Source of the DNA: Spirochaetia bacterium UBA2205
Lineage (GTDB): Bacteria > Spirochaetota > UBA4802 > UB4802
Direction of reading: 5' to 3'
Length of the DNA stretch: 64,000 nt
Assembly (NCBI GenBank): GCA_002328585.1
Contig: DCUV01000014.1
Span: forward strand, 31,893 to 95,892
The notes under the pieces are model-generated. The model saw only the letters and a program-made list of their open reading frames with translations, made no database searches and had not been told where the DNA came from. A program made the translations under genes and the position numbers. How positions within the stretch are numbered: the stretch's first letter is position 1; every line of letters begins with the position of its first letter. Of the stretch, positions 33 through 43,714 are shown in pieces.

Positions 33-665
33 TTGCTGAGATTAATTGTTTATCAAGAAACAGCACATTTCCGTATCGCTACTATTGGTAATCCTTATTT
101 GACTTATTTACTTCCCCCACCGTCTACTATCTATGGCTTCTTGAGAAAAGTAACTAACTATAAAAGCATAAATTATCAAAACACAAAACTGTCAATTCAA
201 GGAATATATGAAAGTACTTCCTTAGAAAAGGAAAGATTAACTCTTGAAAATGAAAGAGGATTAAAAACAAACATTATACCAATCCAAAAATTGCATAGTT
301 CAACATGGATAATTCATATTGATTCAGTATATGATAAGGAAATAAAAGAAGGATTAGATAACTATGCAGGAATTTTACGATTAGGACGGGTTGAGGATTT
401 AATTATAGATTTTTCTTTAGAAGAAGTAACAGTTTCAAATAATGATTGCAACAATATTGACACAAAATATTTCATATATAAAAAATGGGAGCAGGGTAAA
501 GATTTTAAAGGTCAACTTTTTAGTATGTTTATAGATAGTGAAGTAGATGAGAAGTTAAAAATAACTAGATATAAGACAACCCAATTAATATATTCTTCTG
601 TTTATAGTTCTCTTGATGAAATAAAATGTTCAGATGGGAGATATTTAGTATCATGGATACCTTAA
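33..665 (+). CDS. cas5: CRISPR-associated Cas5 (type I-B-like)
   Basis: N-terminal RAMP motif 'AHFR...TYLLPPPSTIYGFL'; TTG start after a GGAGGAGG RBS; directly upstream of cas3. Confidence 0.9.
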   Translation: MLRLIVYQETAHFRIATIGNPYLTYLLPPPSTIYGFLRKVTNYKSINYQNTKLSIQGIYESTSLEKERLTLENERGLKTNIIPIQKLHSSTWIIHIDSVYDKEIKEGLDNYAGILRLGRVEDLIIDFSLEEVTVSNNDCNNIDTKYFIYKKWEQGKDFKGQLFSMFIDSEVDEKLKITRYKTTQLIYSSVYSSLDEIKCSDGRYLVSWIP

Positions 666-2968
666 ATTTTGAAATCATAAAAGATCAAATATTTAAAAAT
701 CTTCGGTTCGATAAATATTTGGCTAAGTATGATAAGACATATAAAACAAGTACCAGTATAGAAGACCATGTTGAAGACTTGCTTCATGAGCTATATAACT
801 TTGTATCAAAATATCCAGACGTTATAAAAACTACTGATGAGATGTTGTTATTAAAATTAGCCATTTTGTTTCATGACGCTGGAAAGATAAACACATTGTT
901 TCAAAAGAAATTAACTGAGAATAGAAAAGATGATGTAATACCCCATAATTGTTTATCACCTTTGTTTCTAAAGTCAGTCGACAAATTGGGTGAAGATAAA
1001 CTTTCTTTGTTAACTTATGTAATAATCAACCATCATAAAAGAGGTTCAAATTATTTTTCAAATGAAAGCTATGGTGTAAATCTTTTGATTAAACAAATAA
1101 AAGAAAGTCAAAAAGATTTTTTCTACAAATCTGAATTTGCTGAAGAAATATTAGAAAAGTACAGAGTTCGGCTTTTAAATTCCATGAAAAATAGAAAGTC
1201 AAAAGAATATATAACGTCCGCTGGTCTTCTTATTCGCCTTGACCATGCTGCTTCTGGTGGATTAGAGGTTGAAGAAGAACCAATTAAAGATGATAGAAAA
1301 GATCTTCTTTTTTCGTTTTTTAAAAGAAAAAATAAGACAACAAAACTTAGACCATTTCAAGAAAGATATGGAATAAATGAGAAGAAAAATTATCAATGTG
1401 TAGTAGCAGACACAGGTCTTGGAAAAACAGGGCTCTCTATATTATGGAGCAATAGAAAAAAATTTTATATTTTACCAAATAGAGCATCCGTTAATGCTAT
1501 GTTTAATACTTTAAAAGAAATATATGGTGAAGATAAAGTTGGATTATTACATTCTACGGCATTGTTTAATTTAATTCAAGATAGTGAAGATGATACTTTT
1601 ATACTAAAAGAATATGATCAGACTCGTGTTCTATCAAAACCAGTAACAGTATGTACAGCGGACCAATTATTTACTGCTGCTTTTAATATGCCGGGATATG
1701 AAAAGATATATGCAACCTTATCTTATTCTGATGTAATAATAGATGAGATTCAGGCTTTTCAACCACAACAGATTATTCCAATATTAAAGCAAATTAAGGA
1801 AACTAAAGAGATTGGTGCTAATTACCTTATTATTACCGCTACTTTGCCATCTATTGTAACAAATAGATTAAAGGAATATGGATTTGATATAATAGAAAAT
1901 GATGATTGCACTATAGATAATATAAAACGACATAAAATTAAAATAGAAAAAGGTAAAACTATAGAAGACTTAAATAAAGAAATTGTTGGAAATGCTACAT
2001 CAGGTAAAAAAGTTTTAATTATTGTTAACACAGTTAAAAAAGCTCAGGAAATGTATATCAATATAAACAACACAATCAAAGAATATGGAGTCAATTTTAT
2101 CGAAATAAATATTCTCCATAGTAGATATATATGGAAAGATAGACAGTTAAAAGAGAAAGCAATCATTGATGAATGTGAACAGGATAATAACTTCAACTAT
2201 AAAAAACAAAATGGTTCAATATGGATAACTACACAATTAGTTGAAGCTTCTCTGGATATTGATTTTGATTACTTATTTACAGAAGCATCAACAGCAGATT
2301 CTATTATTCAAAGGATGGGCAGAGTCTGGAGACATAGAAATATTGATTATAATGGGGATGAAAATATAATTATAGCTACTGCTATAAAAGATACTATTTA
2401 TGAGAAAATATTAGTAGAAAAGACAATCGATATGATTGAAAATAGCATAAAGAATAATGATACTATTTTAACTTCATCAGAAAAAAGGAGAATAGTAAAC
2501 GAGTTATATTCAGAAGAAAATCTTAAACAATGGAACTCAGAGTATATAGAAGAGTGGAATAAATTTGAAAAACAAATATACAGTGGTTGGGATTTTATTT
2601 TAGAAGAGAATTCACAAAGAGCATTTAGAGATGTAATGAGTATTGATCTGATACCCGCAATTTATAAAGAGGATGTTGAAAAAAGTTATAAAAAGCTTTT
2701 AAATTTAAGAAATGAAAAGAATTTAGACGGAAAAGTCAAAAGATTGCAAAGATTACAAATTTTAAAAGAAATTCAGAACTATAAGGTTCCCGTTCCACTA
2801 TATTTACTAAATCCTAATGTTAGTAGAAAACTTATTAATACTTCCCAGCCAATTGAATGGATTGATAAAGGATATGGAATAGGTATTTTGCATGATTATT
2901 ATAAGTATGATCAAATTTTAGGTTTAACATGTAAAGGCATAAAGGTTGAGGATGAAATCATTATTTAG
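653..2968 (+). CDS. cas3: CRISPR-associated helicase/nuclease Cas3 (HD + SF2 helicase)
   Basis: HD motif FHDAGK; helicase motifs DTGLGKT, DEIQ, TAT, LHSR, TQLVEASLDIDFD, QRMGRVWR. The ORF track starts at 626; ATG 653, overlapping the end of cas5, is more likely. Confidence 0.95.
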   Translation: MDTLNFEIIKDQIFKNLRFDKYLAKYDKTYKTSTSIEDHVEDLLHELYNFVSKYPDVIKTTDEMLLLKLAILFHDAGKINTLFQKKLTENRKDDVIPHNCLSPLFLKSVDKLGEDKLSLLTYVIINHHKRGSNYFSNESYGVNLLIKQIKESQKDFFYKSEFAEEILEKYRVRLLNSMKNRKSKEYITSAGLLIRLDHAASGGLEVEEEPIKDDRKDLLFSFFKRKNKTTKLRPFQERYGINEKKNYQCVVADTGLGKTGLSILWSNRKKFYILPNRASVNAMFNTLKEIYGEDKVGLLHSTALFNLIQDSEDDTFILKEYDQTRVLSKPVTVCTADQLFTAAFNMPGYEKIYATLSYSDVIIDEIQAFQPQQIIPILKQIKETKEIGANYLIITATLPSIVTNRLKEYGFDIIENDDCTIDNIKRHKIKIEKGKTIEDLNKEIVGNATSGKKVLIIVNTVKKAQEMYININNTIKEYGVNFIEINILHSRYIWKDRQLKEKAIIDECEQDNNFNYKKQNGSIWITTQLVEASLDIDFDYLFTEASTADSIIQRMGRVWRHRNIDYNGDENIIIATAIKDTIYEKILVEKTIDMIENSIKNNDTILTSSEKRRIVNELYSEENLKQWNSEYIEEWNKFEKQIYSGWDFILEENSQRAFRDVMSIDLIPAIYKEDVEKSYKKLLNLRNEKNLDGKVKRLQRLQILKEIQNYKVPVPLYLLNPNVSRKLINTSQPIEWIDKGYGIGILHDYYKYDQILGLTCKGIKVEDEIII

Positions 2969-3094
2969 ATATTTTCAATTTTTAAAACACTATCTTAATA
3001 TTTTCATCCTAATTATCACAACTGTGCTATACATTAGGAGTAACTATCGCATGCCACGTAACTCAACATTGATATTGATTATCTTATCAATGTA

Positions 3095-3499
3095 ATGCAG
3101 ATGCATGATAGGTTGAATGAATACTATATTGACCTTGAAACAGGTAAAATAGTTTGTAATGAAGAATTACCTGATGATTATAATCTTAGTGAAGATGATT
3201 TGTTGTCTGAAGATGTATCTATTGATTATGAATCTGATCGTTATTTATGGATTCCCTTTTTTGAATCAAGCAAAGCATATAGGTTTATGGAAGATTTTAT
3301 ATATGAATTAGAGAATGAAGAGGCGCGTAAAAAAATAGTATATGCAATACAGGGTAAAAAACCCTTTAGGAGATTTAAAGATGCGCTACAGGCGTTTCCA
3401 GATATTGAAAAACAGTGGTATGGTTTTGAAGAAAAAAGGATGAAAGAGTATATCGTAGAGTGGTTACATGAATATGATATTGCAATTGAAAGCTCATAA
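3095..3499 (+). CDS. UPF0158-family protein, with an apparent 1-nt frameshift near the N-terminus
   Basis: Pattern YYIDLETGKI...YRFMEDFI...AIQGKKPFRRFKDAL...W matches my recollection of UPF0158. An AGGAG RBS and ATG at 3051 are out of frame with the body. Confidence 0.7.
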   Translation: MQMHDRLNEYYIDLETGKIVCNEELPDDYNLSEDDLLSEDVSIDYESDRYLWIPFFESSKAYRFMEDFIYELENEEARKKIVYAIQGKKPFRRFKDALQAFPDIEKQWYGFEEKRMKEYIVEWLHEYDIAIESS

Positions 3500-3607
3500 T
3501 TATTTTAATTGGTTGTGTATATATGAACATTTTTTTGTACATTATACTGTACCATATAAATTACGATATTTTGTTTACAGCTACATTAATCGATCAAGGG
3601 TAAATAT

Positions 3608-4501
3608 ATGATAAACAACGCACTTAAAGAAAGAATGGAAGCACTGCTAAACAGCAGAGAAGATTGGCCTGTTGATGAACTTCATCAAGAGCTGGAAAAA
3701 ATTGTCGATGAAATGAATAAAAAACCATTAGATAATTTTGAAGGATTTTCTCCTGCAGATATGCACTATATACTTTATACTCCGTTTCATGAAAAATGCC
3801 CTATTGGTATAAATACTGATATTTCCAAAGATTTTTTACTACAGCATTCACCCTTATTGAAGTTAGCAGTATATATTATGGAAAAAATTAGCGCAGAAGG
3901 TCCTATGCCATTAACATCTAAAGGTAATCTTAAGGTAAGCTTTATTAAAGAATTGTATAATCTTGGGATTTATTATGGTTATGATAGGGACAGTTTTGAA
4001 AAACGTCCTTACCAGAGTAACTGGAATTTTCTTGAGGCTGTTATGCTTACTTGTATTATCGCCGGTGTTTTGAAAAAAATAAAAGGAATACTTGATATTA
4101 CAAAAAAAGGTAACGCATTATTGAAGGACAATGGTTCGTCGCTCTTTAAGGTATTGTTTATAGCTTATACAATTAAATTAAACTGGGGGTATTTTGATTT
4201 TTTTGAGGATGATGATTGTGGCCAACTTGGATTTTTGTGGACATTATGGATTCTTAAAAAATATGGTTTTACGCCTAAACCAGCCAGTTTTTATGCGCAA
4301 AAATATTTAACAGCGTTTCCAATATTTATTAACCAGCAGAATAACATGCATTTTGCGGATGCCTGTTTTACAGTTCGTTTTATGGCTCGTTTTTGTAGTT
4401 ATTTTGGTTTTATTGCCAGTGATAATAATGACAATATGGCATTATTTTTAAAAGATCCTGAAATTGTTAGTACACCACTTTTGAATGCATTTATCAAATA
4501 G
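3608..4501 (+). CDS. Hypothetical protein between cas3 and cas4
   Basis: 297-aa ORF with coding-like composition; no motif I can name. Confidence 0.7.
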   Translation: MINNALKERMEALLNSREDWPVDELHQELEKIVDEMNKKPLDNFEGFSPADMHYILYTPFHEKCPIGINTDISKDFLLQHSPLLKLAVYIMEKISAEGPMPLTSKGNLKVSFIKELYNLGIYYGYDRDSFEKRPYQSNWNFLEAVMLTCIIAGVLKKIKGILDITKKGNALLKDNGSSLFKVLFIAYTIKLNWGYFDFFEDDDCGQLGFLWTLWILKKYGFTPKPASFYAQKYLTAFPIFINQQNNMHFADACFTVRFMARFCSYFGFIASDNNDNMALFLKDPEIVSTPLLNAFIK

Positions 4502-4553
4502 TTATGGTTAATTCTTTTATATAAAGTTTATGCTTAATAATCAAATATATTTA

Positions 4554-4583
4554 TTGCATTAATAGTGCCATGTATTTTATAAT
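4554..4583 (+). promoter_or_regulatory. Candidate sigma70 promoter for cas4-cas1-cas2
   Basis: TTGCAT-N18-TATAAT, 9 nt upstream of the cas4 ATG; the AT-rich context makes a chance match possible. Confidence 0.4.
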
Positions 4584-4592
4584 TTAAGGAAT

Positions 4593-5096
4593 ATGTATAG
4601 TAATATAACACCTGTAATTACTGGTACTCAAATAGCTTATTATATCATCTGCCATAGAAAACTATGGTTATTTAACAAGAATATTTCATTGGAACATACA
4701 AGTGAACTTGTTGAGATTGGTAAACTAATTCATGAAGCATCGTATACTAGAAAAAGAAAAGAAATTAATTTAGAAGGCATTAAAATTGATTTACTAGAAG
4801 CAAAAAGAGGAATTATCCATGAAGTAAAAAAGTCGAAAGCATTGGAAGAATCTCATGCATGGCAATTGAAGTATTACATTTATTATTGCAAGCAAATGGG
4901 TATTGAAGTGGAAGGGATCATTGATTATCCTAAATTGCGAAGAAGAGAAAAAATTAGCCTTAGTATGGAAGATGAAGAAAAAATAAAAAATATTCTTAAT
5001 GCAATTTATGTACTAATGGATAATGATACCATTCCATCAGTCATAAACAAACCGTACTGCAAAAAATGTAGCTACTATGAATTTTGCTATTGTTAG
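4593..5096 (+). CDS. cas4: CRISPR-associated Cas4
   Basis: YYIICHRKLW; RecB-like KIDLL...HEVKKS; C-terminal CKKCSYYEFC Fe-S cysteines. Confidence 0.95.
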   Translation: MYSNITPVITGTQIAYYIICHRKLWLFNKNISLEHTSELVEIGKLIHEASYTRKRKEINLEGIKIDLLEAKRGIIHEVKKSKALEESHAWQLKYYIYYCKQMGIEVEGIIDYPKLRRREKISLSMEDEEKIKNILNAIYVLMDNDTIPSVINKPYCKKCSYYEFCYC

Positions 5097-5104
5097 GTAT
5101 TACC

Positions 5105-6082
5105 ATGAAGGATTACTACATATTTAAAAGCGGGCGCATTAGCCGCAAGGATAATTCCATAGTGCTTGAAACCAATGATGGTAATATCTTTATACCCATT
5201 AATGATATTGATAGCCTTTGCTTTTTTGGCGAGATTGATATAAATACAAAAGCAATTAATTTTTTAGCACAGCAGCAGGTTGTTGTACACTTTTTTAATT
5301 ACTATGGATGGTATACCGGCAGTTTTTATCCCCGCGAATTTTTGCTATCGGGTGATGTACTGGTGGCTCAGGTAAAGGCGTATCTTGACATGCACAGCAG
5401 AACATATATTGCACGGCAGTTTGTGCAGGGTGCAATTCACGGTTTTATAACCAATATAAAGCGGTATCCTGATGTTGGCGATGCGGCAGTGGATACATTA
5501 CAACAGTACATCAATGCAACTGAAGAGCAATCCAATGTACTATCGCTCATGGGTATTGAAGGAAATGCGCATGAATTATATTATAGCACGTTCCCTGTCA
5601 TAATAAAGCAGCCAATAGAATTTGAAAAAAGGGTAAAACATCCGCCCAACAATATGATGAATGCATTGATATCGTTTTGCAATAGCCTTGTTTATACGCA
5701 TGTAATCAAAGAACTGTATAAAACACAGCTTAACCCAACTGTTAGCTATTTGCATGAGCCATCAAACAGGCGGTTTTCACTTTCACTTGACGTATCAGAA
5801 ATTTTTAAACCAATATACGCAGACCGTGTTATCTTTGACTTGTTAAATAATAACATGATAACCCAAAAACATTTTGACAAAGATTTAAATTACTGTTATT
5901 TAAAAGAGGATGGGCGCAAGATTGTGGTTAAAGCTTTTGACGATAAGATTAATACAACGGTTATGCATAAAAAGTTAAAACGCAATGTAAGCTATCAAAA
6001 GATGATACGCCTTGAATTGTATAAGCTTATTAAACATCTATTAAATGAAGAGCAGTATCAAAGTTTGCGGATATGGTGGTAA
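5105..6082 (+). CDS. cas1: CRISPR-associated Cas1 (type I-B-like)
   Basis: GRISRKDNSI, LMGIEG, NALISF, SYLHEP, SLDVSEIFKP motifs; ATG 5105 preferred over the track start at 5084. Confidence 0.95.
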   Translation: MKDYYIFKSGRISRKDNSIVLETNDGNIFIPINDIDSLCFFGEIDINTKAINFLAQQQVVVHFFNYYGWYTGSFYPREFLLSGDVLVAQVKAYLDMHSRTYIARQFVQGAIHGFITNIKRYPDVGDAAVDTLQQYINATEEQSNVLSLMGIEGNAHELYYSTFPVIIKQPIEFEKRVKHPPNNMMNALISFCNSLVYTHVIKELYKTQLNPTVSYLHEPSNRRFSLSLDVSEIFKPIYADRVIFDLLNNNMITQKHFDKDLNYCYLKEDGRKIVVKAFDDKINTTVMHKKLKRNVSYQKMIRLELYKLIKHLLNEEQYQSLRIWW

Positions 6083-6166
6083 GATAGTCATTATACAATA
6101 GTAGGTAACCAGGATGCATGGAATGGATAAAAGAGATTACAAAATGACCAGAACTGCAATAAAAGT

Positions 6167-6260
6167 TGTTCCCATTATTAAAAATGTATTTAAAGAAGGT
6201 ATACTATATGAATAATATATTTAAAAAAATTGTTGGGGCGATAGTTACTGGACATTAAAA
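6167..6260 (+). other. Candidate degenerate repeat/36-nt/degenerate repeat unit between cas1 and cas2
   Basis: 6167-6195 matches the array repeat at 15/29 and ends in the exact ATTTAAAG; 36 nt follow; 6232-6260 matches at 16/29 ungapped. Confidence 0.4.
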
Positions 6261-6285
6261 AATTGATGGATAACAGTGTAATGCC

Positions 6286-6567
6286 ATGTATGTAATCCTT
6301 GTATACGACATCTCAACAGTAACATCAAGTGGACGGAAGCGATTGCCAAAAGTAATGAAAAAATGCCGACAGTACCTTAGACATACGCAAAAGTCAGTAT
6401 TTGAAGGTGAGATAACCGAAGCAAAGCTGTATGCATTAAAACAGGAGATTGCAAAGCTTATAGATGACAAAGAGGACTATGTGGTTGTATACCAATTACC
6501 ACAAAAAACAGTACTCGACCGTGAAAATATAGGGATAGATTTTGACCCGACTGAACGAATCATATAA
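6286..6567 (+). CDS. cas2: CRISPR-associated Cas2
   Basis: MYVILVYDI...QKSVFEGEIT motif; 93 aa; follows cas1. Confidence 0.95.
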   Translation: MYVILVYDISTVTSSGRKRLPKVMKKCRQYLRHTQKSVFEGEITEAKLYALKQEIAKLIDDKEDYVVVYQLPQKTVLDRENIGIDFDPTERII

Positions 6568-6706
6568 AAAAAGCTTGATGTGATGAATACTTGCTGATAA
6601 AAAGTACCAAATAAGCAAAAAAGCACTACCGGAGGTTCGAGAAACAGCAAGTTTGGAAATGATACGTATTTTTTAATAATTGATTATAATAGGCTTTTTT
6701 CAACGG
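6568..6706 (+). promoter_or_regulatory. CRISPR leader
   Basis: AT-rich non-coding 139 bp between the cas2 stop and the first repeat. Confidence 0.7.
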
Positions 6707-6989
6707 GTTTGAGCTTCCAATAGTGGGATTTAAAGAAAATTTGTTTTTGAATATCCTTTTGGTAACTAAGGTGTTTGAGCTTCCAATAGTGGGATTTAAA
6801 GATGTATCAGCAAGGAATAAATAGGCAATGGATAAAGTTTGAGCTTCCAATAGTGGGATTTAAAGCAGTAAAAAGTATCAATGACAAGACTGGTGTTGCA
6901 GGTTTGAGCTTCCAATAGTGGGATTTAAAGATATATTCTATTTACATGCTGCCCGTTCTACCGCACGTTTGAGCTTCCAATAGTGGGAT

Positions 6990-7188
6990 GTAGCAGTTAT
7001 AAGGTTTATAAAGTTGAAAGTTTATAAAGTTAAAGGATGGTGAAGCGCCTGGGTGGTTACAATACATTGATTGCGATTACACAATAACAGTGTTTTACCG
7101 GGGATGTGACAATATAGTACGAAGAACTTATTATTTGTTTTCACAATAACTTTGAACATTATAACATTACGAACTTTGAACTGTTACC
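6990..7188 (+). mobile_element. 199-bp gene-less element, copy 1
   Basis: 43-bp left arm, 107-bp core, 49-bp right arm; preceded by repeat nt 1-23 and followed by a full repeat. Confidence 0.75.
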
Positions 7189-7671
7189 GTTTGAGCTTCC
7201 AATAGTGGGATTTAAAGAACTCACCAAGCTCATAAAGACTATAATCCTCAACAGTTTGAGCTTCCAATAGTGGGATTTAAAGAACTTTGTCTTTGTTGAT
7301 TTAAACCTACTTGAGATCGGTTTGAGCTTCCAATAGTGGGATTTAAAGATATATCTTGTTAAACATGGGAGTACATTAGAGCCAGTTTGAGCTTCCAATA
7401 GTGGGATTTAAAGTCAGATAGCCAGTCACGTAATTAATCGTGAATCTATTAAGTTTGAGCTTCCAATAGTGGGATTTAAAGTTGCTTGTAAATTTCCAAC
7501 GAATCCACTTTGCACACGTTTGAGCTTCCAATAGTGGGATTTAAAGTACTCATCGATAAAACTTTTTATATCTTCACCAGCTGTTTGAGCTTCCAATAGT
7601 GGGATTTAAAGATATAGCGGGATGACACCATTTTGGAGGTAGAAAAGCGTTTGAGCTTCCAATAGTGGGAT

Positions 7672-7870
7672 GTAGCAGTTATAACGTTTATAAAGTTGAA
7701 AGTTTATAAAGTTAAAGGATGGTGAAGCGCCTGGGTGGTTACAATACATTGATTGCGATTACACAATAACAGTGTTTTACCGGGGATGTGACAATATAGT
7801 ACGAAGAACTTATTATTTGTTTTCACAATAACTTTGAACATTATAACATTACGAACTTTGAACTGTTACC
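7672..7870 (+). mobile_element. 199-bp gene-less element, copy 2
   Basis: Identical to copy 1 except one G>C in the left arm. Confidence 0.75.
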
Positions 7871-7893
7871 GTTTGAGCTTCCAATAGTGGGAT

Positions 7894-8363
7894 GTAGCAG
7901 TTATAACGTTTATAAAGTTGAAAGTTTATAAAGTTATACAGTTTTATACGATAATTGTATTATGAAAATAAATAAATTTGAAGATATAAAATCATGGCAG
8001 TTAGCTGAAGTCTTAACGTTAGAGGTGTATAAGTTTGAATGTAAGACTCAATCTGGAATAGATTTTAGTTTTAAGGATCAAATTCAAAGGGCTTCTGTAT
8101 CTATTATGTCAAACATAGCAGAAGGTTTTGAAAGGGCTACCAATAAAGAATTTACCAGGTTTTTATATGTAGCAAAAGGGAGTTGTGCGGAGGTGAGGTC
8201 GCTCCTTCATGTTGGTAACAAGATTGGTTATATTACACAGTCTCAATATATAGAATTGCTAACACTTTGTGAAGATATTAGCAAAACCCTTTCTGGTTTG
8301 ATCAAGTACCTATCTTCACAATAACTTTGAACATTATAACATTACGAACTTTGAACTGTTACC
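7894..8363 (+). mobile_element. 470-bp element carrying the four-helix-bundle gene
   Basis: Same left arm (7894-7936) and right arm (8315-8363) as the 199-bp copies; the gene's last codons TCA CAA TAA lie inside the right arm. Confidence 0.75.
7962..8324 (+). CDS. Four-helix-bundle protein (TIGR02436 / 23S rRNA-IVP family, Avd-like fold)
   Basis: Family signature FEDIKSWQLA...DQIQRASVSIMSNIAEGFER...EFTRFLYVAKGSCAEVRS. Confidence 0.92.
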   Translation: MKINKFEDIKSWQLAEVLTLEVYKFECKTQSGIDFSFKDQIQRASVSIMSNIAEGFERATNKEFTRFLYVAKGSCAEVRSLLHVGNKIGYITQSQYIELLTLCEDISKTLSGLIKYLSSQ

Positions 8364-8386
8364 GTTTGAGCTTCCAATAGTGGGAT

Positions 8387-8585
8387 GTAGCAGTTATAAG
8401 GTTTATAAAGTTGAAAGTTTATAAAGTTAAAGGATGGTGAAGCGCCTGGGTGGTTACAATACATTGATTGCGTTTACACAATAACAGTGTTTTACCGGGG
8501 ATGTGACTATATAGTACGATGAACTTATTATTTGTTTTCACAATAACTTTGAACATTATAACATTACGAACTTTGAACTGTTACC
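8387..8585 (+). mobile_element. 199-bp gene-less element, copy 3
   Basis: Differs from copy 1 by three A>T changes (8473, 8508, 8520). Confidence 0.75.
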
Positions 8586-8608
8586 GTTTGAGCTTCCAAT
8601 AGTGGGAT

Positions 8609-8639
8609 GTAGCAGTTATAAGGTTTATAAAGTTGAAAG
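8609..8639 (+). mobile_element. Truncated element (first 31 bp of the left arm)
   Basis: GTAGCAGTTATAAGGTTTATAAAGTTGAAAG after repeat nt 1-23, then unrelated sequence. Confidence 0.65.
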
Positions 8640-8822
8640 CGAGGCTGTGAAAATATAGTTTGTAAATTAAAATTCAGTAATGGATGCGTGGACTTGCTTA
8701 TTTTAGAATATTAATGCCCTTGACTTTAGACCTTAAGTAAGATTTACACAATGAATAACAAAAATGAATTGACAAAATATTAGAAAACATACGATTTATA
8801 TAATATATTATATATCTATATT

Positions 8823-9398
8823 ATGAGTCAGGGTAATATCATAATGGTGCCATTTCAAAAGGAAGTATTAATAAATGGGATACTATTTTTTGCAAAAGCG
8901 TATTATAAAAAAACAAAAAAATATCCTGCGCAAATGTATCTCTATAAATTTTTAGCATTTGTTGATTTTGAAAGTGTGCAACAAACGGGAGAACCTGTTT
9001 TTGGGTTACAATATATAGCTATGGAGAAGGGTCCTGTCCCAAAAGAATTATATGATAATCGTGAAAATATAAAAAATGATTTATTTAGATTTGTAAAAAA
9101 GGATAATGCTATATTAATTATTCCTGATAATAGCAAGCAAGTTAACTTTGAATATTTTTCCGAATATGAAATTGATTTATTTAATAAATGGATTGAAATA
9201 ATTGCTGATAGGAAAGTTTTAACTAAAGATATTAGTTTAAGCAGCCATGAAATAAATGCATGGGAAAAAACATATAATAAAAAGCCAAATAGTATCATCA
9301 GTTATAAGGATGTATTTGATATTATACCTGCACAAAAAGAATTATCCCCTGTAGAAGAGCATTTTTTGATTTATTCTTCTATACATAATATTAAATAA
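8823..9398 (+). CDS. Panacea (DUF4065/SocA-like) domain antitoxin
   Basis: LYKFLAFVDF...QYIAMEKGPVPKELY resembles the DUF4065 core. Confidence 0.75.
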   Translation: MSQGNIIMVPFQKEVLINGILFFAKAYYKKTKKYPAQMYLYKFLAFVDFESVQQTGEPVFGLQYIAMEKGPVPKELYDNRENIKNDLFRFVKKDNAILIIPDNSKQVNFEYFSEYEIDLFNKWIEIIADRKVLTKDISLSSHEINAWEKTYNKKPNSIISYKDVFDIIPAQKELSPVEEHFLIYSSIHNIK

Positions 9399-9823
9399 TG
9401 AATATTGAACCGGGAACTGTTCTATATTGGGAAAAATTTGCAAACCCCAATATCGGGAAAGAAATAAAAAATGTTTATATGATATATCTTGGTTGCGATG
9501 ATTTAGCAAATTATACCATATTTACGTATTGCCACCGGTTTACTACGCAAGTACATCACTCTAACTTGATCATTGAATTTAAACAAGCAGAATACCATGA
9601 AATTTTTTCTGAAGACTGTTATCTTAATTTTTCTGAAAGAGTATATGAAATCCCATTAGAATATATACATAATCATAAGGAACAGATAAAATTATTGGGC
9701 AAATTGAAAAAGGATGATTTATATAAAATTCTTAAATGTGTCAATAAATCAAAATATTATAAACCAAAAACTAAAATAGCTGTACGGGATAGTTTTTCAA
9801 AAATAAACATTACTCTTAAATAA
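9398..9823 (+). CDS. Putative toxin with a PemK/MazF-like pattern
   Basis: Translationally coupled to the antitoxin (TAATG overlap); G-x-V-x-W..F...K..YMIYLG...FTT...LGKL..DDLYKI pattern resembles the PemK fold. Confidence 0.5.
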   Translation: MNIEPGTVLYWEKFANPNIGKEIKNVYMIYLGCDDLANYTIFTYCHRFTTQVHHSNLIIEFKQAEYHEIFSEDCYLNFSERVYEIPLEYIHNHKEQIKLLGKLKKDDLYKILKCVNKSKYYKPKTKIAVRDSFSKINITLK

Positions 9824-9953
9824 TAATTTTACTTTTTTAGTTCTATGACAAATGACAGTTATATCAAGTATTAAAAATTATAGCCACCCGTTATGAAAAA
9901 ACAACGATTAAAAGATATATAAAAACACACCTTGCATATTTTCCATTGAAACT

Positions 9954-10400
9954 TTATGGTACCTTTATAGCTAACTCTTCTGAATCAACATCAATTGAAA
10001 TGCCGCTCATAGCCTTTACAGGGCAGGCTAATTTACACAGTCCGCATGCAACACAGCGTTCAGGATAAAATTCCACCATCATTGTTTCACGGTTTATCAC
10101 CAGCGCATCGGTTCGGCATACTGCTGTACAGGCGCCGCAGTGTACGCATCTGTTCTCATCACGCTGAATCTTATCAGCTAAAATATCAACAACCACTTCT
10201 TCATCTATCAGATAATTGATACAGGTATCTATATCTTCTCTTTCGCCGGAAAGTTGCAGTATAAGCCTGCCTTCCTGTTTGGGCAGTATTTTTGCCTCAA
10301 GCACATTAAATATTACATTAAAATCTTTAGCAATGCGATAGATAATGGGTTTATACATTATATTCTGGTTAAATATTAAAAGCACATTTCGTGATTCCAT
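9954..10400 (-). CDS. NIL-domain 2x[4Fe-4S] ferredoxin
   Basis: N-terminal NIL-like domain plus CVHCGACTAVC and CVACGLCKLAC; ATG 10400 preferred over the track start at 10526. Confidence 0.88.
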   Translation of the reverse strand: MESRNVLLIFNQNIMYKPIIYRIAKDFNVIFNVLEAKILPKQEGRLILQLSGEREDIDTCINYLIDEEVVVDILADKIQRDENRCVHCGACTAVCRTDALVINRETMMVEFYPERCVACGLCKLACPVKAMSGISIDVDSEELAIKVP

Positions 10401-10411
10401 GATAACCTCGT

Positions 10412-11137
10412 TTATGACGTTTGAGTAAGTTCTATACACCCCTTTATAGCCATTGTATCCCAGTATATCACCATGGCTCCCGTAACGCCAGATATTGTAC
10501 AGGCATACTCCAGCGCATGAACACAATCCTCTTCTTTTTGTACCCTGTTACAGGTTGCTGTTGCAACCGCATCAGCCAGTGACGCCGACGATGCAAGTAT
10601 GGTTACACAATCGGCTTTGCCAAAACTAAATGAGTGTCCAAAACGCCCTGATGATGAACAAATTCCTGATGGCGTGTCATGCGGTTGAATAACAATACCA
10701 CAATCACCCAAAAATGCCTTCCTTCCCGCAAAAACCTTGATAACAGCAGGCTCCTGTACCTTTGCCCAGATATCGCCACCGTTTTCAATAATTATCTCCG
10801 GGCTATAGGTAGTCAGCTCTTCGCCAATCATCTGGGCGATAGTTCCGGCAACTGCTGCCATTGGACCAACGGAAGCCTTTGCTGTAGCACTATACATCCT
10901 CCGTACCACCTCCGGAGCAGATGGATCAAATTCAAGAGGTGATAGCGCATGCAGAAAGTTATCATGTTTTGCAATGTAGTCTTTAATATCGTTGCGCAGC
11001 TGATGAACTAATTGCAGGGTTCTATCGCCAAGATTGTTATGAGCACATATAAACAGGCTGGTGGTTTCAACACAAACTTCAAATGTTGTAAAGCGTGTAT
11101 TTTGAATCAGTGCTCTGTATGCCAATGTGCTGTTCAT
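10412..11137 (-). CDS. UPF0280 / ApbE-like protein (COG2122)
   Basis: VGPMAAVAG, IIIENGGDI, GICSSSG..GHSFSFGKAD, LADAVATA motifs. Confidence 0.85.
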   Translation of the reverse strand: MNSTLAYRALIQNTRFTTFEVCVETTSLFICAHNNLGDRTLQLVHQLRNDIKDYIAKHDNFLHALSPLEFDPSAPEVVRRMYSATAKASVGPMAAVAGTIAQMIGEELTTYSPEIIIENGGDIWAKVQEPAVIKVFAGRKAFLGDCGIVIQPHDTPSGICSSSGRFGHSFSFGKADCVTILASSASLADAVATATCNRVQKEEDCVHALEYACTISGVTGAMVIYWDTMAIKGCIELTQTS

Positions 11138-35938: not shown

Positions 35939-36284
35939 ATACCATTAAATTAACCCGCGTGTGCCGCAGTGGTATGAATATTTGAGCTCCCTTTGTAAAG
36001 GTGGATTCTCGCATACGGACATCTATCTACTTCATAATGAAGCGTGATATAAATCCGCAGATTAGAGATTCCCTGCTCAGTAGTATTGGAACTACAATAT
36101 GACATACCATACACGAACACCGCAGGCTTACTGTCTAATATACTGAAATAATATTTATTGGCAACAAAAATTTTACTTGCTAATGTGGGTGAAAACACTG
36201 ATACAGTGTGGAGCATGGTTTCATAACAATAACTGATATACAGTAACTATCGAACACAAAAAAGCTTTAAAGGCTACATCCGCA

Positions 36285-43640: not shown

Positions 43641-43714
43641 GGGCCCATAGCTCAGCAGGTTAGAGCGGCTGACTCATAATCAGTAGGTCCGGGGTTCGAG
43701 TCCCTGTGGGCCCA
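43641..43714 (+). tRNA. tRNA with CAT anticodon, most likely tRNA-Ile2 (lysidine type); CCA not encoded
   Basis: Acceptor stem GGGCCCA/TGGGCCC, D-arm AGCTCAG..GGTTAGAGC, anticodon stem-loop CTGA-CTCATAA-TCAG, T-loop GTTCGAG; resembles Ile2 more than Met tRNAs. Confidence 0.9.

Follow-up and report, generated by a model that had tools for sequence, protein, structure and literature searches.

We analysed a 64,000-nt stretch of the genome of Spirochaetia bacterium UBA2205 (contig DCUV01000014.1, positions 31,893 to 95,892; the whole stretch is called the window hereafter), where three gene-less 199-bp units and a related 470-bp gene-carrying element lie in a CRISPR array beside a type I-B cas operon. 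The gene codes for an intervening-sequence protein (IVP, or S23p), named after the intervening sequences (IVSs) of rRNA genes. At a probability of about 0.6, we propose that the 199-bp units are gene-less members of the IVS-type hairpin family, that they occupy spacer slots of the type I-B array, and that they are released from the precursor CRISPR RNA (pre-crRNA) and keep recombining. The position of the units, their junctions, strand, stem, non-coding core and age, and their variation among strains were established by the observations described below.

The array (6707–8608, + strand) is made of a 29-nt repeat, GTTTGAGCTTCCAATAGTGGGATTTAAAG, which belongs to the GTGGGATTTAAAG-type class. It contains 11 intact repeats, five repeat stubs, 11 spacers of 35–39 nt and four elements, which fill four of the spacer slots (three of 199 bp and one of 470 bp); the first 23 nt of the repeat occur 16 times in it, against an expectation of 0. 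All elements are on the + strand. The short ones lie at 6990–7188 (copy 1; left arm 6990–7032, non-coding core 7033–7139, right arm 7140–7188), 7672–7870 (copy 2) and 8387–8585 (copy 3), and the long one occupies 7894–8363, with its left arm at 7894–7936, the IVP gene at 7962–8324 and its right arm at 8315–8363. Copy 1 is 99.5% identical to copy 2 and 98.5% identical to copy 3, which has three substitutions in its core (98.5–100% overall). We observed that nt 1–43 of the short element match 7894–7936 of the long element at 97.7%, copy 2, whose left arm carries the C variant of the long element, being identical there, and that nt 151–199 match 8315–8363 at 100%. A sequence-only reading of this DNA had described three 199-bp copies whose left arm (43 nt) and right arm (49 nt) recur in the gene-carrying element, and both the coordinates and the identities were borne out. 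The left and right arm patterns occurred five and four times in the window, compared with 0 times in 100 shuffles, and arm sequences were not found elsewhere in the window outside the array units. An independent DNA contig (X24) spans the junction of spacer 11 and copy 2 (7592–7806) with 0 mismatches.

The junctions of the elements with the repeats are precise. Five identical stubs, each consisting of repeat nt 1–23, lie on the + strand at 6967–6989, 7649–7671, 7871–7893, 8364–8386 and 8586–8608. At each of them the repeat ends at nt 23 (…GGGAT) and is followed by GTAGCA, which is the start of the left arm and the base of the stem; GTAGCA thus stands in place of the last six repeat nucleotides, TTAAAG, which make up most of the 5′ handle of the crRNA. 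The right end of every element reads …CTGTTACC and directly abuts nt 1 of the repeat that comes next. Behind copy 1 this is an intact repeat (7189–7217, + strand), with the normal 5′ handle for the ordinary spacer after it, and in the terminal cluster stubs and elements alternate. The array terminus (8586–8639) consists of a stub and 31 nt of a truncated fifth left arm (8609–8639, + strand), which had escaped the sequence-only reading. We found the same type of terminus in the related loci L105 and L018, and also, with 21 nt of the arm, in lineage L110.

In type I-B maturation, Cas6 cuts 8 nt before the 3′ end of the repeat, which leaves an 8-nt 5′ handle on the crRNA; in the excision of IVSs, RNase III cuts in the stem. 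We propose that the elements would be transcribed within the pre-crRNA and that Cas6 would release them at the flanking repeats. As the stubs retain the Cas6 site (…GTGGG/AT, where the slash marks the cut), the upstream crRNA would obtain a normal 3′ end, and the intact repeat behind an element would provide the next spacer with its normal handle. The RNA of the element itself would start with AU-GUAGCA…, having only two of the eight handle nucleotides left, and hence is not expected to be loaded into Cascade. Its long stem would be a substrate of RNase III, probably cut as in the rRNA IVSs, or would persist as a stable by-product. The element might then be harmless to the array in the way that an IVS is harmless to rRNA.

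Folding of the elements favoured the strand on which the array is read. The arms of the short element pair as an imperfect stem of ∼36 bp, in which 36 pairs, including five G-U pairs, are kept in seven sequence variants; the arms of the long element likewise pair. The arms are composed of AAAGTTN/NAACTTT units, that is, of tandem repeats of ∼7 nt. From z-scores calculated with mononucleotide shuffles, the minimum free energy of the short element was −47.5 kcal/mol on the + strand (z = −3.2) and −25.1 on the − strand (z = +0.3), and the arms alone gave −25.3 in the sense and −14.2 in the antisense orientation. The stability of the sense strand was equal to or higher than that of the antisense strand in 13 of 13 short variants, in three elements of the distant locus L001 and in L005, and the arm mismatches in the window clade had a sense-strand bias of 6:1. 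The core alone folded no better than its shuffled versions (z = −0.3), and no conserved RNA structure was found in it, the predicted inner helix being broken in the variants and only one pair covarying. Searches against Rfam gave no hit in 6000–9500 of the window at E ≤ 1, nothing relevant and no rRNA in the whole window, and none in the related loci L001, L005, L104 and L015.

We next consider the 107-nt core. The right segment common to the short and long forms starts at TTCACAATAA, the last codons of the gene and its stop, and the earlier observation that the right arm retains them was correct. The similarity of the short to the long element is confined to the arms, which agrees with the earlier description of the core (7033–7139) as unrelated to the gene, and its identity to the 3′ end of the gene, past TTCACAATAA, was ∼30% by our own count, about chance level. 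The core is thus not a remnant of the local gene. It does hold the two frames reported earlier, a 38-codon frame open into the same stop, which an in-frame TGA breaks in copy 3, and a 16-codon mini open reading frame (mini-ORF). Their suggested coding potential did not survive the comparison of variants: the start codon of the mini-ORF is replaced by ATA or GTA, the 38-codon frame is disrupted by 1-nt indels in the variants and by the stop in copy 3, the core substitutions between variants are mostly non-synonymous, and a Pfam search with the 38-aa translation gave no match. We therefore rejected the core as a coding sequence; it may be a functional RNA, as the earlier reading also allowed.

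The sequence-only reading had also suggested that the core might be foreign DNA captured as an oversized spacer, a ‘mega-spacer’. It does lie in a spacer slot and has a canonical right junction with the repeat. However, the core had no match among 50,697 phage records, 72,556 plasmids and the contigs of IMG/VR; it is 107 nt long (199 with the arms), while the spacers are 35–39 nt; the upstream repeat is truncated and lacks its last six nucleotides; and the same core recurs as diverged variants at several array positions in many strains, always framed by the arms common to the IVP element. This origin hardly seems credible. An ordinary CRISPR spacer was likewise rejected as a description of the whole units (199–470 nt, against 35–39 nt), the upstream repeat lacking its last six nucleotides and no foreign match being found.

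The core diverges by 20% between the window lineage and the lineage of locus L104, for which the synonymous divergence (dS) of the IVP gene is 0.24, and overall its divergence rate looks about neutral. The divergence is uneven, with two near-invariant blocks, ATTGATTGCRATTAYACAATAA.AGTGTTTTA and TTACGAWGAACTTAYTATKTGTTTTCACA, and the core variants appear mosaic. The second block, TTACGAWGAACTTAYTATKTGTTTTCACA, includes a promoter-like site, GTGACA-17-TATTAT (7106–7134, + strand), which faces the right arm and is a consensus match only; in the variants it is kept as TTGAAA/ATGAAA-17/18-TACTAT. The elements might be a working part of the array and not passengers, in which an outward promoter in the core restarts transcription of the downstream spacers or the IVP gene, and/or hairpins protect or terminate the transcript as repetitive extragenic palindromic sequences and bacterial interspersed mosaic elements (REP/BIME) do. 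The retention of the site in diverged variants, within the best-conserved block, speaks for such a role, as do the long-term retention of the elements and their location at the trailer end of the array in several lineages. In the window and in L015, L017, L021, L103/L104 and L001, the unit immediately upstream of the IVP element is a short one, but L012, L014, L016, L019 and L020 have an IVP element without it. Such promoter-like sites are, however, frequent in this AT-rich DNA (22 found versus 10.5 expected), the cores of L001 and L114 are unrelated in sequence, neither a U-tract nor a terminator-like site was found, and the core diverges about neutrally overall. In run X10, one RNA contig reaches at 21× depth from the core across the stub and on into the arm that follows, which also suits such a role. 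On balance we regard a promoter or stabiliser function as unlikely.

Each right arm further carries on its − strand (7158–7187, 7840–7869, 8333–8362 and 8555–8584) an antisense promoter-like sequence, GTAACA-18-TGTTATAAT, with an extended −10. This site is probably fortuitous, because it is not conserved in L105 and other lineages.

The RNA data consist of contigs from unstranded metatranscriptomes, in which contig depth is a poor measure of abundance; the depths of the short element and the IVP gene were 45 and 3.6 in run X3 (about 12.6×) and 21 and 2.3 in run X10 (about 9.3×), compared with ratios of 1.5–2.3× in DNA contigs. This is weak evidence that short-element RNA exceeds its copy number several-fold in two of four runs, and it fits a stable hairpin RNA. 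RNA contigs of two runs end at 7003 and 7686, i.e. at arm position 14–15, and the end at 7003 in X3 is joined to an Illumina adapter. These could be processing ends, or breaks of the assembly graph at a polymorphic G/C site.

The seeming abundance of a short RNA in two metatranscriptomes could also suit a CRISPR-tied regulatory or addiction RNA, either a toxin/antitoxin pair that resembles CreTA and guards the locus, or a decoy in which TTGAAAG-like units of the arms pass for the 5′ handle of a crRNA. CreTA modules are RNA toxin-antitoxin systems of type I-B loci, which is the type of the host system, and here an altered repeat precedes the element. The units of the left arm (6990–7032), TTGAAAG, TTTATAAAG and TTAAAG, are indeed similar to the repeat 3′ end ATTTAAAG (nt 22–29, the future crRNA 5′ handle). 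But the handle needed for CreA-like loading is destroyed, reading ATGTAGCA instead of ATTTAAAG, neither the start nor the frame of the mini-ORF is conserved (ATA/GTA in the variants), the core has no conserved structure (one covarying pair, z = −0.3) and differs by lineage, and heptamers of the AAAGTT type occur beside IVP genes outside CRISPR loci too. An addiction or decoy RNA is, in our view, very unlikely, and a CreTA-like module was rejected on the altered handle and the unconserved mini-ORF start. Given such heptamers beside IVP genes elsewhere, the likeness of the arm units to the repeat end could be chance, or it may provide microhomology with the repeat. TTAAAG is present at 7030–7035 as had been noted, while the alternative parse that it seemed to allow fell away: it is a chance occurrence, because the variants read TTAAGC, TTAAGG or TTAAGA and the long element reads TTATAC.

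The variation among strains was observed around two kinds of match. The exact IVP protein is encoded by 23 contigs of metagenomes from digesters and sludge, and a search with a conserved core block gave seven further loci. The short forms across these loci are of 13 distinct kinds, and all have identical orientation and junctions. The order of the units varies by strain, being short-long-short, long-short-short, long-short-long (L020) or long only. The strain of L103/L104 has at least 76 spacers and the order stub-short-repeat-spacer-stub-short-stub-long-repeat, followed by non-array DNA. At position 14 of the arm there is a G/C variant that has been shuffled among short and long units. Copy 2 is missing in the close relative L012 (GCA_002402695.1); in the window it sits between 66-nt direct repeats, each composed of the 23-nt stub and the left arm, and its absence there is therefore the signature of a recombinational deletion. 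Locus L018 has a 232-nt unit, which is the long element with an internal 238-bp deletion of the gene, whose joint (8051 to 8290) is also present in RNA contigs, and L105 has a 166-nt form in which part of the core is deleted. Copy number and order would shift by homologous recombination between the stubs and arms, and such recombination between direct repeats explains the copy-number differences among the strains.

The suggestion that the arms act as a cassette for different cargo was well founded, and the proposed search of related genomes did find further arm-bounded cargos: besides the IVP gene, the arms enclose the 107-nt core, in at least three diverged mosaic variants, the 166-nt core-deleted form and the 232-nt form. 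The derivation of the short form from the long form by core replacement, proposed as a local and recent event, has to be given up, since the same breakpoints are present in a second lineage (at the IVP dS of 0.24) and the short forms of other lineages have unrelated cores. We infer that the short form represents an old lineage without the gene, which still exchanges arms with the long form, and is not its recent derivative.

Two related observations concern copies at the margins of arrays. In L104, at 8340–10170 and 2.2 kb past the end of the array, an IS3-like element that carries two transposase ORFs splits an orphan degenerate repeat with a short element and a stub. L106/L108 come from strains in which the CRISPR-cas locus is missing; in their first 200 nt, what is left of the 3′ half of the short core adjoins a homologue of the window gene at 9954–10526, and this relic looks like a deletion endpoint within an element. 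No copy was found away from CRISPR repeats in the window or in the seven metagenome loci, all copies adjoining repeats or being relics.

The arrangement R(1–23)-element-R(1–29), where R is the repeat, is also what would be expected if hairpin-armed DNA were inserted into a repeat at a staggered cut of 23–25 nt, duplicating repeat nt 1–23. The enzyme would then be the IVP protein or Cas1-Cas2, and the long and short elements would be an autonomous and a non-autonomous mobile pair. Several features agree with this: on its right the element joins repeat nt 1, a canonical site of attack by Cas1-Cas2; the junction is constant across six lineages; some copies are isolated amid unrelated spacers; and the 232-nt unit of L018 is a genuine deletion derivative of the long element. 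Yet no transposase, integrase or nuclease domain was found in the PF05635 protein, Pfam and PADLOC giving no transposase or integrase for the element, no other enzyme candidate is available, and to our knowledge no nuclease, integrase or transposase activity has been assigned to PF05635. Moreover, no copy lies away from CRISPR repeats in the loci examined, the elements of L001 are in tandem without an intervening repeat, all strain differences can be produced by recombination at direct repeats of 23–66 nt, and elements of 199–470 bp far exceed the 35–39-bp spacers. The association also fits a single ancient insertion inherited with cas1-cas2. Mobility of this kind appears quite unlikely. The earlier label ‘MITE-like’ (after miniature inverted-repeat transposable elements, MITEs) has likewise to be dropped, as the partner gene is no transposase and copies occur only beside CRISPR repeats; we also found no dispersed sites with target duplications, and an interior derived from the partner only in the form of L018.

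Returning to the gene-less IVS-type hairpins that we favour, we observed the same architecture in distant lineages. The closest homologues of the IVP (61–74% identity) occupy the same kind of array position. Contig L002 was left aside as apparently chimeric or rearranged. L001 combines a Cmr type III system, cas1-cas2 and an array whose terminal repeat breaks off at nt 25 and is followed by a tandem of short-IVP-short-short, with no repeat between the elements. In L005–L011, which are metagenome-assembled genomes (MAGs) of Brevinematia, an IVP element has on one side a repeat that stops at nt 24 and on the other an 11-nt remnant of a repeat, and it is conserved though the spacers vary by strain. 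In L111–L113 each IVP element is flanked by a stub that stops at nt 25 and by a repeat, and there are one or two such elements (two in L111 versus one in L112); L110 has an IVP element followed by a stub and the 21-nt truncated arm, and L114/L115 have the order short-repeat-three spacers-stub-IVP-stub-short-stub-decayed third element. A left junction at repeat nt 23–25, a right end at repeat nt 1 and sense orientation are thus common to L001, L005–L011, L110, L111–L113, L114/L115 and L103–L109, and the arrangement recurs in six or more related lineages, whose effectors are of type I-B or III-B. Between lineages the identities are 71–88% for Cas1, 70–89% for Cas2 and 64–74% for IVP. From this divergence and the differing effectors, it follows that the element has long travelled with the adaptation module and the array; the arrangement is thus an old one, passed on jointly with cas1-cas2 and the array. 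In L005 (2200–3780), we also observed duplicated blocks of 2–5 spacers, e.g. a run from CTTTCATTAAAGAG at about 2236 and 3336, which reflect either repeat-mediated rearrangement that is common in this array family or a collapsed assembly.

The long element and its protein connect the array units to the known IVS family. The 120-aa product is a full-length match to PF05635 (‘23S rRNA intervening-sequence protein’, S23p, ‘four helix bundle protein’; E = 1.2e-33), matches the pentameric four-helix-bundle structure from Xanthomonas, PDB 2gsc (E = 3.5e-9), and has a weak match to bAvd (E = 0.0017). Between the window and L104 lineages, the ratio of non-synonymous to synonymous divergence (dN/dS) of the gene is 0.12, at dS = 0.24, and the gene is under purifying selection. 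We compared it with a wider sample of 79 of 80 IVP loci (L025–L102), taken from GTDB representative genomes of many phyla. Strong inverted arms surround the gene in 54 of the 79 loci, 30 of these 54 being heptamer-periodic, and only two loci, both of the window clade, reside in arrays. Hairpin-armed IVP elements are therefore general, and residence in CRISPR arrays is a variant specific to one clade. Inverted arms of tandem ∼7-nt units look like a general property of the PF05635 family that extends beyond rRNA IVSs. In one locus of this sample (L028, a MAG of Bipolaricaulia), an IVP hairpin element lies at 1340–2462 between three tRNA genes and the gene for the signal recognition particle RNA, all on one strand; this would appear to be another stable-RNA transcription unit as host.

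Several observations weigh against our proposal. The other two RNA runs show no enrichment of the short element (9.6 and 4.9 in X2, and a ratio of about 1 in X1). Among the 54 armed IVP loci of other phyla, the arm mismatches are 67 G-U and 64 A-C, and they have no sense-strand bias; as there is no family-wide excess of G-U, the bias in the window clade may be local, and selection on the arms at the RNA level may be peculiar to this clade, or may be an effect of base composition. The long retention with cas1-cas2, the dN/dS of 0.12 of the IVP gene and the two conserved core blocks hint at a function instead of a neutral passenger. Finally, isolated copies amid unrelated spacers (copy 1, L103/L104 and L114) need recombination between arrays or true insertion. 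A bolder version would make the IVP gene and the hairpins a selected component of one cas1-cas2/array family in Brevinematia-like spirochaetes, with an Avd-like protein and a hairpin RNA acting in the expression, maintenance or adaptation of the array, or else a new mobile class that colonises CRISPR repeats, possibly through the CRISPR integrase, and is excised from the pre-crRNA and kept out of Cascade. We consider this rather doubtful.

The cas operon (33–6567, + strand) precedes the array. It consists of cas5b (33–665; by Pfam, and by PADLOC as Cas5b I-B with E = 8e-18), cas3 (626–2968), two non-cas genes (3095–4501), cas4 (4593–5096), cas1 (5084–6082) and cas2 (6286–6567), the latter four cas genes being identified by Pfam and all genes lying on the + strand. 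The assignment to type I-B was checked on cas5b, cas3, cas4-cas1-cas2 and the repeat-spacer array, all of which are present; in strain L012, cas7/DevR and a gene of the size of cas8 lie upstream of the operon. The two inserted genes code for a UPF0158 protein of 134 aa and for a protein of 297 aa that gives a weak match to Y4jL_N in L012, and both are kept in L012 and L014. A leader occupies 6568–6706 (+ strand). L012 has one additional spacer at the cas2-side end of its array, and hence the leader is on the cas2 side, the array grows there and is read on the + strand. Directly 3′ of the array, at 8823–9823, a 191-aa protein with an antitoxin-type SocA/Panacea domain and an overlapping 141-aa ORF of no family form a possible toxin-antitoxin pair. 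Elsewhere in the window there are a 6S RNA gene (35948–36131, − strand, 57.9 bits) and a tRNA gene (43641–43714, + strand).

An IVS-like element that has a fixed place among CRISPR repeats and differs in copy number among co-existing strains offers a second and more tractable host RNA in which insertion, excision and the role of the IVP protein can be studied. It means that CRISPR arrays can stably hold non-spacer units, which are seemingly built to spare the neighbouring crRNAs, and it bears on the processing of array transcripts. Such units also break array callers and metagenome assemblies, and so are relevant to the annotation of arrays.

Among known systems, the IVSs of rRNA genes are the closest. 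Gene-less IVSs occur in Salmonella and Campylobacter. ORFs of the S23p family lie within the IVSs of 23S rRNA genes in Leptospira, Coxiella, Xanthomonas and Brucella; such IVSs have a sense ORF, inverted repeats forming a stem that RNase III cuts mid-way, and tandem heptamers of variable number, and strains with ORF deletions occur (PMC4990558). The IVS of Coxiella has GACAGAT tandem repeats, and one strain has a 176-bp deletion in the ORF (PMC4990558). The origin, mobility and function of the rRNA IVSs and the S23p/IVP family are still described as unclear, decades after they were found (PMC4990558). The window elements share with them a PF05635/S23p four-helix-bundle ORF placed in sense within a non-coding RNA gene that is highly transcribed, long arms of inverted repeats that consist of tandem ∼7-nt units and form a stem, gene-bearing and gene-less forms, and strain variants with ORF deletions and variable repeat numbers. 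At the level of sequence we found a PF05635 ORF or a gene-less hairpin, stem-forming inverted repeats and tandem ∼7-nt units, but no insertion in a helix of 23S or 16S rRNA, as Rfam detected no rRNA in the window or the related loci. Since the host is an array and not an rRNA helix, we do not file the element as an rRNA IVS. It further differs from rRNA IVSs in having several copies per array, in its bounding by CRISPR repeats, at which Cas6 could release it besides RNase III, and in the purifying selection on its gene (dN/dS 0.12), in contrast to the decaying ORF of Coxiella.

MITEs resemble the window elements in that short units without a gene and a longer unit that has one possess the same terminal inverted arms, and L018 provides one true internal-deletion derivative. 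They differ in that the partner here is no transposase, the copies are confined to CRISPR arrays in one orientation, the core of the 199-bp unit is not derived from the partner, and the sole flanking ‘duplication’ is the CRISPR repeat itself. Interruptions of CRISPR arrays by insertion sequences and other DNA, and degenerate terminal repeats, are also known. Like them, the elements are non-spacer DNA in an array with an altered 3′ end of the upstream repeat, and in L104 an IS3-like element does interrupt an orphan unit. Unlike them, the window elements have precise repeat junctions and intact neighbours, are found in at least six lineages and encode no transposase. CreTA is similar as a small non-coding unit beside degenerate repeats in a I-B locus, but the elements described here have lost the 5′ handle, yielded neither a conserved mini-ORF nor a rare-codon toxin, and lie in the array and not among the cas genes. 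The Avd accessory proteins of diversity-generating retroelements belong to the same protein superfamily as the IVP (bAvd, E = 0.0017), while the window locus has neither a reverse transcriptase nor template/variable repeats. In the searchable literature we found no account of IVS-type elements that sit between the repeats of a CRISPR array. The nearest association is ‘UAS-8’ of the FLSHclust survey, in which a 23S rRNA IVP and DUF2325, sometimes with a reverse transcriptase, are statistically linked to CRISPR adaptation genes (PMC10910872). We rejected it as the same association, because UAS-8 is a cyanobacterial gene neighbourhood, whereas the elements described here are embedded in the array between its repeats.

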